The translations under genes were made by a program, and so were the position numbers. From the UHGV virus genome UHGV-0110421: a stretch of DNA of 13,892 nt; one strand, 5' to 3'. How positions within the stretch are numbered: position 1 is the first letter of the stretch; each line of letters opens with the position of its first letter. Origin of the DNA: a virus. Below are positions 2,142 to 5,197 of the stretch, in pieces. The notes below the pieces were generated by a model that worked only from the letters and a program-made list of their open reading frames with translations, was not told where the DNA came from and ran no database searches.

Positions 2142-3763
2142 CAGGCCTGTCTCCCTAGCAGCTCCCAGATGTTCAGGGCTGAATTCATTGGCGCGTAGCT
2201 GATCATCACCGAGTCGGCGAGGTTCGGCGACTTGGTGCCATCAGGCTGTTTATCAACAACGATTTTCCCCACGCCATTAATGGAGTAGGTCGGCTGCGAC
2301 AGCTCAATGATGAGTTTGTCTTTGCTCGCCATGGCGCTGCTGATTGAGATGATTTCGTCCGGGTTGTAGGCCATGCCCTCAACCACGGCGCGATAGGTGT
2401 TCTGGAAAAGCTTGCGTAGCCACCACCAGCTCTGGGCCTTGGCGTTGGCGAAGAAGTCCTTGTTCAGGCGTGCGGCCTGTCCGTTGTCCCCGCGCACCGC
2501 TTCATCGTCCGGATCAAATACCGCGCCGCTACCACGAAACGGTGTGGCGAGTATTGACGGTCGGCGCGCTGCGTAACGCAGTTCGTTGATGGCGCGCGCA
2601 TCGCCGCGAACGCCAGCACCCAGGCCGTCCTCGTCGAAGCGAAACTCTTCGAGGTTGTCCTGTTCGCAAAAGCCGAAGACCTTCTCAACAGACTGGTAAA
2701 TGTCGCTGCCAACGCCGGACCATTCACGCACGTTCTCCAGAAGGAAGCCGTGACGGGTCGAAAAGGCATTTTTGTCCCGGCCTTCGTCGGCGACGTCCAT
2801 CGCGCCCAGTCGCTTGCCCGTTGGCTGAATACCAAGTTTGATATGCGCGTCGACGGCAGCCTGTACCCAGTCGGACGGGATCAGGACGCCTTCCGCAGAT
2901 GCGCTGTAGTTCAGGTCAAGTTCCTGCGCCACCACCACCGGATTGTCGATTTTCTCGCATTCCCTGCGATACCACTCTTCATCCTTGCGCGGGTCATTTC
3001 GCCAGTGGAATGTGAAAACCGGTATCTTCCCGCCGTGACGCTTCTGCGCGAACGGGTTCGCCATGCCGTTAACCGAACTCAGGTCGATACGGCAGCGGGT
3101 GGTTTGCGACAGCGCTGCGTCGATCAGCAGAGGACGCTGGAGGAATGCAGCCTCATCTACCAGGTAGAGCGTGGTACGGTCACCACGTCCGATATTGTCG
3201 CCAGCTTCGCCTTTGATGACCGCGCCCGTATCGGGAAACTCAACGCGCATGTACGGCGCGTGCTTCTTCTCGTCCCACGAACCGCGAAACTCGACGGGCA
3301 GCGTTTCCACGAATTTGCGCGCCTTCCAGAACAGCGCCTTCGGGTCACCGGTGCTATCGACGTATTCCTCTTTACGGGAGCCGAAGCCGATAACCATCTC
3401 TTTGTTGAAGAGGCAGAGCGAACAGGCCAGCCCGATCGCCGTCCAGCTGAGCCCCATTTCGCGGCTCTTTTCGGTGATGCCGTTCTCCAGCCGTTCGCGC
3501 CGCTCAATGATCCAGTGAATCCACTCTTCCTGTTTCGGGAACAGCAGAAAAGGGATTGTGACCGGCAGGCCATAATCGATGTTACGCGGGTCAGTAGTCA
3601 TACCCCAGTCGATGATGAACTGTGCCGGGTTGGTGCGGTAAAACTGCTTTAGTGCTGGCAGCATTTCAGGGTTCTGGCGAATGCGCTGTAAGCGCTCCAT
3701 CCGCCATTCAAAAACCATCTGGTAATCAGGGTTTCTGAAATCGAATTCAAACGGAAGAGGCAT
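2141..3763 (-). CDS. terL: terminase large subunit
   Basis: Large ORF with terminase-like ATPase/nuclease architecture, between the small-subunit gene and portal. Start placed at ATG 3763 (MPLPFEFDF...); the tracked start at 3820 is a TTG inside the AT-rich insert and is judged unlikely. Confidence 0.8.
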
Positions 3764-3834
3764 AAACAATTCCAGGCATTGAGTTTTTGCGTAACAAAGT
3801 TGATATTGTTTATGTACCAATTACAGGAGGTTTT

Positions 3835-4047
3835 ATGACACCAGCAGTTAGCGCTAAGTTGTTGGAATTAACCAACGACCTTAACAACGAAGTAAAATTG
3901 TCTGCAATTTATGCTCTCGGCGAGAGTGCTTCAGCAACGCCAGCTCATGTAAATCGCTTACTTGATTTATCTTCGGATCTAAATCACAACGTCAAAGTCG
4001 CTGCAATTAAAGCTCTTGGCCGTATTACTCGACCAAAACAAGCCTAG
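3835..4047 (+). CDS. small repeat protein (70 aa) with two tandem HEAT-like (PBS-lyase type) repeats; antisense moron
   Basis: ATG at 3835 with a consensus AGGAGG 4 nt upstream. Protein shows an internal duplication (LLELTNDLNNEVKLSAIYALGE / LLDLSSDLNHNVKVAAIKALGR). Segment is visibly AT-rich versus flanks and is the only + strand gene in the late operon. Confidence 0.5.
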   Translation: MTPAVSAKLLELTNDLNNEVKLSAIYALGESASATPAHVNRLLDLSSDLNHNVKVAAIKALGRITRPKQA

Positions 4048-4052
4048 AATCC

Positions 4053-4073
4053 ATAGCCGCAACATGCGGCTAT
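4053..4073. other. stem-loop between convergent genes (8-bp perfect stem ATAGCCGC / GCGGCTAT, 5-nt loop)
   Basis: Perfect inverted repeat sitting exactly between the stop of the + strand repeat-protein ORF and the stop of the minus-strand small terminase gene. No U-run on either side. Confidence 0.3.
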
Positions 4074-4546
4074 CACCCCATCATCTTGCGGTAAATCTCT
4101 GCGGCCTGATCTGCGGTGAGGTTGGTCGTCTCGGTCTTGATCGGGCCGCCATCCTTGCCAGTGCTTTCAACCTTCAGCTTATTGGTGTAAGCGTCGCCAA
4201 CCTCTTTCGCGGCCTGTTCAATCAGCTGCGCCGTCAGGGAGAAGTTTTTCATCCCCTCGGTTTTGGTTGCCATGCGGTCAAGCACGCGGAGGCGATAGGA
4301 TTTGTTCGCGATCGGAATGTCGCTGGTTTCGGTCAGGAACCGTTCGCGCGTAGCGTGGAACATCTCGATCCACTTTTTGGCGAGCGTCTTACCGCTGGCC
4401 TTCGTGGGGTCGTGAGATTCAGCCTGCTGGCGGGTGATCTTGATCCCGAATTCTTTTTGGACAGCCTCAACCACCTGCGTCGGCGTGTCATAGCACGCAA
4501 GCGACTGAATGATGAAGGCTTTCACATCAGGTTTTAATGCAGCCAT
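4073..4546 (-). CDS. terminase small subunit-like protein (DUF2280-type)
   Basis: 157-aa ORF upstream of TerL in the late operon, ATG at 4546 with a GGTGA Shine-Dalgarno-like motif. Family assignment is from memory. Confidence 0.55.
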   Translation of the reverse strand: MAALKPDVKAFIIQSLACYDTPTQVVEAVQKEFGIKITRQQAESHDPTKASGKTLAKKWIEMFHATRERFLTETSDIPIANKSYRLRVLDRMATKTEGMKNFSLTAQLIEQAAKEVGDAYTNKLKVESTGKDGGPIKTETTNLTADQAAEIYRKMMG

Positions 4547-4576: not shown

Positions 4577-5197
4577 TTAAGCCAGTCGCAGCATGCACGT
4601 CCCGCAAGCTCTGGCAATATCGAGATGAGCAACCTCCGCTGGCTGATTCGCCGCATCAATCATTTCCTGCACATCACGGCTCGCACCGTAACGGCGAACC
4701 ACGCCCACAAACTCTTCCACATCGTGGCCGCGTAGCTTCAGCTTTGGCAGCCCCTCTTGCGTGAACTTCGGCGCGCCAAACTCATCTGTCGCTTGGCAGA
4801 TGTGATAAAGCTCGTGCTCTATCAGGGCGCAAAACTCCAGATCAGAACATTGCGAGCAGTAATCAGCGGCCAGCGTGATGATGTACTGCGGCACCCTGCC
4901 GAACCATTCATACATCTGCTGCTCCATCCGCGCTTTCTGCCAGCCTCCAGCCCGCATTGCCACTTCTTCCGCCTGCCCCAGCACGGACCGCCCTTTCTTC
5001 TCGAAAGTGTTCGACGCCCAGAGAAAGCACAGATCCGCTTCAAGCAAATGCTGGTGATCAGGGTTGTAGAGGTCACCCTCATCGCTCAGGATGTGCTGAT
5101 TCAGCCACTCGCCAACGTCACTGGCGGGCATTATGCTGATGTACGGCTTCGGGTCAGGTGGCATCGTAAAATGCGCTGGTGGGTGTGGTCTGTTCAT
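4577..5197 (-). CDS. HExxH zinc-metallopeptidase-like accessory protein
   Basis: 206-aa ORF with an HELYH motif and Cys pairs (CSQCSD, CGTC) suggesting a metalloprotease with zinc-binding elements. Lies between the lysis cassette and the terminase genes. Confidence 0.45.
   Translation of the reverse strand: MNRPHPPAHFTMPPDPKPYISIMPASDVGEWLNQHILSDEGDLYNPDHQHLLEADLCFLWASNTFEKKGRSVLGQAEEVAMRAGGWQKARMEQQMYEWFGRVPQYIITLAADYCSQCSDLEFCALIEHELYHICQATDEFGAPKFTQEGLPKLKLRGHDVEEFVGVVRRYGASRDVQEMIDAANQPAEVAHLDIARACGTCMLRLA

Follow-up and report, generated by a model that had tools for sequence, protein, structure and literature searches.

An antisense HEAT-repeat gene between the terminase genes of an E. 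coli prophage

The window analysed here is the whole 13,892-nt stretch of the virus genome UHGV-0110421. It corresponds to the late region, on the - strand, of a lambdoid E. coli prophage and is 99.7% identical to E. coli AR_0118 (NZ_CP020048). Between the genes for the large (terL) and small (terS) terminase subunits, this region carries a 309-nt cassette with one small gene of HEAT-repeat type, and this cassette is the subject of our analysis. A first-pass annotation had described a gap of about 310 bp holding a single + strand open reading frame (ORF) of 70 aa, with an ATG at 3835 behind an AGGAGG and opposed to the whole late operon. We found this description to be accurate: the gap measures exactly 309 nt (3764-4072), bounded by the start of terL at 3763 (- strand) and by the terS stop triplet at 4073-4075 (- strand). 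The features of the locus are listed below.

3764-4072, + strand: inserted cassette (putative moron), filling the 309 nt that separate the terL start and terS stop codons, delimited by empty-site alignment and GC profile
3835-4047, + strand: two-repeat HEAT gene, 70 aa, from ATG 3835 to TAG 4045-4047, antisense to the late operon
3779-3807, + strand: sigma-70-like promoter candidate, with -35 TTGAGT (3779-3784), a 17-nt spacer and -10 GATATT (3802-3807)
3825-3830, + strand: Shine-Dalgarno sequence AGGAGG, 4 nt before the ATG
4053-4073, between the HEAT stop and the convergent terS stop: GC-rich hairpin, arms 4053-4061 and 4065-4073, 9 perfect base pairs and a 3-nt loop
2141-3763, - strand: terL, 540 aa; PHROG 2 'terminase large subunit' (E 5e-30), PGAP 'TerL protein'
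4073-4546, - strand: terS candidate, 157 aa, Pfam DUF2280 (E 9e-50), C-terminal ...YRKMMG*
672-2141: portal gene (Pfam Phage_portal_3)
4577-5197: metallopeptidase gene (Pfam PhageMetallopep)

For the HEAT gene itself, RefSeq/PGAP places the start at TTG 3787, which gives 86 aa (3787-4047; AR_0118 AM365_RS02170, WP_136769304); all homologues and the position of the AGGAGG point to ATG 3835 and 70 aa, as in WP_032214630. An upstream terL start that would cover the gap was excluded, because the terL frame is open for just 19 codons, to TTG 3820, and homologues start at MPLPFEF. The DUF2280 gene is a putative small terminase, judged from its position and from the (R/K)KMMG tail that is common to annotated terS families; a PDB sequence search with it returned no match. 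A known RNA element was likewise rejected, since an Rfam scan of the window gave zero matches.

The cassette is a precise insertion of low GC content

Using positions 3400-4500 (1,101 bp) as the query, we searched 5,426 complete E. coli genomes. Two of them matched the whole query at 99.4-99.7%, and in three the cassette adjoined a different terS. In about 25 genomes both flanks were 97-98% identical but spanned 794 bp instead of 1,101, lacking exactly 307 bp. These empty sites read ...GGAGAGGCAT-GA-TCACCCCATC..., that is, the terS stop, 2 nt and the terL ATG, and the 307 additional bases of the window sit exactly at this point, extending the 2-nt spacer to 309 nt. The borders of the insert are precise, with GCAT before it and TCACCCC after it. 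Neither a target-site duplication nor terminal inverted repeats were found at these borders, and a transposon-like insertion was rejected on that ground.

The composition of the insert had also been noted as lower in GC than both flanks, and the windowed profile agreed: GC across the insert was 0.375-0.395 in 200-nt windows, compared with 0.57-0.60 on both sides, and about 0.42 for the cassette overall. Taken over the 3764-4072 block, values were 0.38-0.42, with 0.55-0.59 in the flanks. The same GC dip was present in all nine other junction alleles that we examined. Homologues at this junction always accompany the same TerL family and always show the dip.

The product is predicted to be a minimal alpha-solenoid

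The 70-aa protein is built from two repeats, aa 9-41 and aa 42-70, with a period of 33 aa (LLELTNDLNNEVKLSAIYALGE... / LLDLSSDLNHNVKVAAIKALGR...). An internal duplication of a unit of about 24 aa, resembling HEAT or PBS-lyase repeats, had been proposed. The duplication and its HEAT character stood, with Pfam HEAT_2 (PF13646, 35.1 bits) and HEAT (PF02985, 31.0 bits) above their gathering cut-offs of 27.7 and 23.5; the length of the unit had to be revised to 33 aa, and HEAT_PBS (PF03130) stayed sub-threshold at 15.6 bits against a cut-off of 20.9, so that the protein has a similar repeat type but is not filed there. With a six-sequence family alignment as input, AF2 returned a model of the HEAT fold with four helices (3-12, 18-29, 36-45 and 51-65), pLDDT 92.3 and pTM 0.80. 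On this model, the product is a minimal alpha-solenoid of two HEAT-like repeats.

The best PDB matches were artificial alphaRep binders both by fold (Foldseek TM 0.77-0.81, rmsd 1.3-2.3 Å over 62-66 residues) and by sequence profile (alphaRep chains at E about 1e-25 to 1e-10, best 4e-25), and the natural protein MTH187 (PDB 1te4) also superposes on the model. A search of the viral fold collection BFVD with the same model gave zero matches at E<=0.001. AlphaRep binders derive from the same natural HEAT-like repeat family, and their libraries were randomised in the variable helix of each repeat. The phage-borne alleles resemble this arrangement, in that the A-x-x-A-L-G helix of each repeat is invariant and the other helix varies. 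Across 19 distinct family sequences, mean entropy reached 1.03-1.11 bits in the most variable parts, helices 1 and 3 with the loops, and fell to 0.62-0.70 bits in the least variable, helices 2 and 4; the AIYALGE and AIKALGRI motifs of these last two helices are nearly invariant among alleles of 40-100% identity. Such a pattern is consistent with, but does not prove, a binder of allele-specific specificity; the fold and the location of the allelic variation together suggest a protein-binding function. Unlike alphaRep proteins, the natural phage protein has only two repeats, no capping repeats and a period of 33 rather than 31 aa, and its binding is only predicted.

Promoter-like site, ribosome-binding site and hairpin are shared by the junction alleles

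The predicted transcription start of the promoter candidate lies near 3814. A motif of the form TTG(A/T)nn-17 nt-(C/G)A(T/A)ATT, 24-30 nt upstream of the ATG, is present in all eight distinct junction alleles, and neither its spacer nor its flanks are conserved among them; shuffled sequences gave a chance of 0.001-0.004 per allele for its occurrence. The Shine-Dalgarno sequence of the HEAT gene forms an anti-Shine-Dalgarno duplex of -10.9 kcal/mol, within a range of -8.7 to -12.8 kcal/mol over all alleles.

Downstream of the gene, a perfect stem-loop between the two convergent stops had been predicted with an 8-bp stem; the stem-loop is there, with a stem of 9 bp. It folds at about -18 kcal/mol (60-nt fold), and its final base doubles as the first of the terS stop triplet. 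Seven of the eight junction alleles have a hairpin of -14 to -20 kcal/mol against the terS stop, with stem sequences that differ and covary. We consider this hairpin the probable terminator of a + strand transcript. Across the junction alleles only four things are conserved: the promoter-like site, the strong Shine-Dalgarno sequence, the ORF and the hairpin.

A small family is exchanged between Enterobacterales prophages and kept under selection

The gene and its homologues, here called the mini-HEAT family, form 8 clusters among 5.8 billion proteins and occupy 27 IMG/VR loci. The window allele was found in 5 of the 5,426 E. coli genomes, and mini-HEAT genes in about 15 of 413 TerL-related IMG/VR loci; E. 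coli prophages with this TerL family number 346. The members are stand-alone proteins of 68-72 aa, restricted to Enterobacterales prophages, and genes of the family already carry the NCBI label 'HEAT repeat domain-containing protein'. A profile search of 1.84 billion representative proteins produced 24,218 matches, mostly long multi-repeat HEAT proteins that are uninformative on the small family. The bulk of these matches, bacterial proteins of 640-6,000 aa with 5-24 repeat stretches, share the repeat motif of mini-HEAT but not its stand-alone size. In a scan of species-representative genomes, three prophage matches (one in Erwinia, two in Citrobacter) appeared besides generic HEAT proteins. 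A literature search on HEAT-repeat prophage, moron and anti-defence proteins and on DUF2280 found no relevant report.

The junction alleles are 50-100% identical to the window protein and come from E. coli, Enterobacter kobei, Salmonella enterica, Yersinia enterocolitica and uncultured prophages. In each case the gene sits antisense between terS and a terL of the window's TerL family (TerL 59-100% aa identity), and the adjoining terS genes represent no fewer than three unrelated families (DUF2280, a 190-aa type and Terminase_2). Salmonella, Yersinia and further related prophages have diverged alleles at this position, with 50-66% aa identity. DNA identity among junction alleles is just about 59%, with an ORF of 68-72 codons throughout, and pN/pS was 0.05-0.33 in all 11 allele pairs tested, at synonymous divergence up to saturation. 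These ratios indicate that the ORF is under purifying selection and that the gene is real.

The identity of the cassette is decoupled from that of its flanks. Between the window and locus L003 the cassette is 95.8% identical, although terL is only 84-89% identical and terS is unrelated; in L023, where the flanks are comparable, the HEAT allele is 59% identical. One allele stands beside both the DUF2280 terS and the unrelated 190-aa terS, different alleles stand beside one terS, and HEAT alleles of 50-62% identity are paired with TerL proteins of 91-96% identity. Together these comparisons point to a mobile, horizontally exchanged cassette, and with the empty sites they bear out the horizontal acquisition that the first-pass annotation had suggested. 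The right-hand anchor of such exchange may be the stretch of at least 13 shared bases at the terS 3' end.

More distant alleles, 40-48% identical to the window protein, 68 aa long and ending in ...GRIYR, occur in Citrobacter, Erwinia and others. They are antisense and lie directly upstream of terS, in phages that have other terminases, among other small accessory ORFs. Most have a stem-loop 3' of the HEAT gene, which in at least L028 and L039 is a canonical terminator with stem and U-tract. One truncated or frameshifted variant of the family (P0007) has 42 aa.

Immediately before the ATG of the distant HEAT genes lies a relic some 50 nt long, the reverse complement of a terS 5' end (MALTDKQEMFCREYLI...; L009:5950-6000, L028:465-515, L032:840-890, L033:3895-3943, L038:3897-3946 and L039:3445-3494). 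It persists even at loci that have no neighbouring terS and at loci whose start codon has been lost. The relic records an ancestral divergent terS/HEAT arrangement that is still intact in L027 and L030, and it may contain the promoter of the distant HEAT genes.

Near distant HEAT alleles we also observed a gene of the Acb2/Tad1-hairpin family, an anti-CBASS/anti-Thoeris sponge family (L010:2529-2867 and L011:2151-2489), and a HicAB toxin-antitoxin pair (L009:8339-8970). Since such genes stand beside distant HEAT alleles, the interval between the lysis genes and terS appears to be a hot spot for conflict genes. Directly downstream of the distant allele in L028 (756-2398) lie a DUF4411 (PIN-like) gene and a Peptidase_M78/IrrE-like gene, a pair that looks like a two-gene toxin-antitoxin or defence module.

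The terS/terL junction is a hot spot for accessory cassettes

Terminase genes had been said to be tightly coupled as a rule, and for this phage group we could confirm it. The junctions of the 80 closest TerL relatives in IMG/VR were distributed as follows.

68 of 80: coupled junction, terS-terL spacing of -1 or +2 nt
9 of 80: HEAT cassette at the junction
2 of 80: other insert at the junction
1 of 80: junction cut off at the contig end

The first of the two other inserts (L100:1369-1800, IMGVR_UViG_3300048924_000121) is a different antisense cassette of 432 bp with a GC of 0.42. It has a Shine-Dalgarno sequence AAGGAG, a 112-aa ORF (MAFEEEILRQQIAQ...) and a hairpin, AAAGGGCAGTCGCTGCCCTTT, against the terS stop. 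The second (L056:1628-1800, IMGVR_UViG_3300045988_069121) is a non-coding insert of 173 bp and GC 0.51, which carries on the late-operon strand a terminator-like hairpin with a T-run (GGCTCGCTTAGGCGGGCCTTTTTATTT) and behind this a new Shine-Dalgarno sequence (GGAG) for terL; the insert may represent a small RNA or what is left of another cassette. Pfam gave no family for the accessory ORFs of L100 (112 aa), L009 (141 aa), L033 (156 aa) and L038 (88 aa). The terS/terL junction is thus a hot spot for accessory cassettes, and the combination of homologues and unrelated inserts at one junction argues for a long-standing moron hot spot and against a one-off arrival.

At the terS end of these junctions we further observed an (R/K)KMMG* tail in 78 of 79 junctions paired with the TerL family of the window, the remaining one reading RKLMG. 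The tail is shared by at least three unrelated terS families, namely DUF2280 (157 aa), the 190-aa type, a 205-aa type and Terminase_2 (340 aa), and it was located in the window (4073-4090, the terS 3' end) and in L003, L005, L006, L024-L026 and L046-L125. It is probably a tail by which TerS docks to TerL.

The cassette compared with known morons

Morons have been described as having a deviating GC content, their own promoter and terminator, and expression from repressed prophages (PMC3594210). The cassette separates two genes that close relatives have side by side (309 nt compared with 2 nt, between flanks of 97-98% identity), and its GC is unlike that of its neighbours. Like the lambdoid morons as defined in HK97 and HK022, such as HK97 gene 15 and lambda bor, it consists of a single small, horizontally exchanged gene with a promoter-like site and a hairpin, and it shares with bor the antisense orientation in the late region. 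The distant HEAT alleles even occupy the equivalent site of bor, between the lysis genes and terS; we take the position just upstream of terS to be that of bor in lambda. Two things set the cassette apart from these morons. Its site is the normally translationally coupled terS/terL junction, and its product is predicted to be cytoplasmic and without a signal peptide, unlike the lipoprotein Bor and the inner-membrane exclusion protein gp15, to which no homology is implied.

We therefore read the cassette as a moron, and probably as an autonomous, horizontally exchanged unit in the terS-terL spacer that encodes a HEAT binder whose partner lies outside the terminase of the phage itself. In the sequence of events that we propose, the cassette would have been dropped into the 2-nt terS-terL spacer of a lambdoid E. 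coli prophage, bringing a 70-codon gene together with a weak promoter of sigma-70 type, a strong ribosome-binding site and a hairpin to end its transcript. Because it faces against the late operon, its expression would be expected at times when the Q-dependent late operon is off, either in the lysogen or soon after infection, and once that operon is active its transcription would run across the cassette. Transcription from the prophage and termination at the hairpin are suggested by the arrangement of these signals. The HEAT protein would then most likely bind a partner protein with the face that helices 1 and 3 and the loops make up, where natural alleles differ. Since the alleles vary independently of terS type and of TerL, the phage's own terminase would most likely not be this partner; a host protein, or one from a competing phage or mobile element, is the likelier candidate, in line with other prophage morons such as HK97 gp15 and lambda Bor.

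Several results weigh against this interpretation. The promoter candidate matches 8 of 12 consensus positions, under the 9/12 threshold of the generic promoter/terminator scan, which called neither the promoter candidate nor the hairpin. The hairpin of the window allele has no U-tract, which is explained by the next bases encoding the terS C-terminus. A tblastn search with the mini-HEAT protein against 50,697 deposited phage genomes found no match, which leaves the family without an experimental handle; PHROGs v4 gave no family, with partial matches at E about 1e-3 to families of unknown function; and the sole match in PADLOC-DB 2.0 was a 55-residue generic repeat aligned to the 1,972-position HEAT-ARM_XIII model (E 9e-5). 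Finally, every family member found adjoins terS, which a purely host-directed function does not predict. This constant adjacency can be explained by the hot spot and its recombination history.

Alternative roles for the cassette

The same adjacency is the main argument for a role linked to packaging, in which mini-HEAT would bind the (R/K)KMMG tail of TerS, TerL, or the terminase of a competing phage or satellite, and would modulate or block packaging. Such a protein could serve in the lysogen as a safety lock on leaky terminase, or interfere in the way that the satellite packaging-interference proteins SaPI Ppi and PICI Rpp do; the likeness of mini-HEAT to these is one of position only. In all of the roughly 38 family loci the gene is directly beside terS, either in the terS-terL gap or just upstream of terS, and this holds for at least three terS families and two TerL types. 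Even the distant members retain the terS-derived relic described above. The insertion uncouples terL from terS and, in most alleles, leaves terL with a weak Shine-Dalgarno sequence. However, 68 of the 80 phages of the group package without any cassette, the HEAT alleles follow neither terS type nor TerL, and accessory genes in general are found at the site upstream of terS, lambda bor being an example. The junction of L100, moreover, holds an unrelated 112-aa antisense gene. With this insert and the general accessory site, adjacency to terS can be positional, and the inserts of L100 and L056 weaken the idea of deriving a terminase-related function from it. We regard a packaging role as unlikely.

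A bolder version of the binder hypothesis would make the terS neighbourhood functional: mini-HEATs would be naturally diversifying, uncapped alphaRep-like binders of two repeats, whose alleles prophages exchange at the terminase junction and which are used in conflicts between mobile elements. They might neutralise a terminase made by a rival phage or satellite, or a sensor by which the host recognises terminase, and they might stack onto a larger HEAT-repeat defence protein. This proposal is speculative, and we would not expect it to hold.

An effect in cis was also weighed, in which convergent transcription, an antisense RNA and/or the hairpin would insulate terL and the head genes against read-through or tune the ratio of TerS to TerL, with the ORF being secondary. 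The cassette sits exactly at the terS/terL boundary, and with it the 2-nt coupling of terL to terS is lost. The Shine-Dalgarno sequence of terL in the window is weak (GGAA, -3.3 kcal/mol, compared with -6.1 in empty sites); it is weak in most cassette alleles and strong in L025 and L026. In addition, a perfect 10-nt inverted repeat at 3761-3770 and 3805-3814 (CATAAACAAT / ATTGTTTATG) shares bases with the -10 of the HEAT promoter candidate. In late mRNA from the - strand, this repeat would place the terL AUG and the 7 nt upstream of it in a stem (mean probability of being unpaired 0.16), and so sequester the start. The non-coding insert of L056, with its terminator-like hairpin at the same place, fits a role in cis as well. 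Against it, purifying selection acts on the protein with its invariant AIYALGE and AIKALGRI motifs, all alleles have the strong Shine-Dalgarno sequence for the HEAT gene, and the relatives upstream of terS retain the protein but not the junction. The stem that hides the AUG is confined to the window allele, with a mismatch even in L003, whose cassette is 96% identical; as it is not conserved in other alleles, we give it only as a side observation. A primary role in cis is very unlikely, and we treat the lost coupling, the weak terL Shine-Dalgarno sequence and the AUG-hiding stem as consequences of the insertion and not as its purpose.

That the gene is a neutral hitch-hiker or a decaying remnant with no current function might be argued from its rarity in E. 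coli genomes and TerL-related loci and from the truncated or frameshifted variant, but with pN/pS well below 1 up to synonymous saturation, and with ORF length and regulatory signals conserved across genera, we give this explanation hardly any credence.

Implications for prophage biology

The cassette is real, mobile and under selection, and it is an ordinary kind of prophage add-on. The splitting of a coupled terminase pair, the two-repeat HEAT product and the swapping of alleles are unusual, and none of them is categorically new. In one widespread group of enterobacterial prophages, antisense accessory cassettes have repeatedly landed at the terS/terL boundary, where the two genes are normally coupled. 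The mini-HEATs are a small, clean and uncharacterised family, with 68-72 aa and allelic variation on one face, which makes them an easy target for studying prophage expression in lysogeny. If the protein is not a binder, it is one more moron of unknown function; if it is a true specific binder, it would be a natural counterpart of the engineered alphaRep scaffolds and possibly a new player in phage-phage or phage-host conflict.

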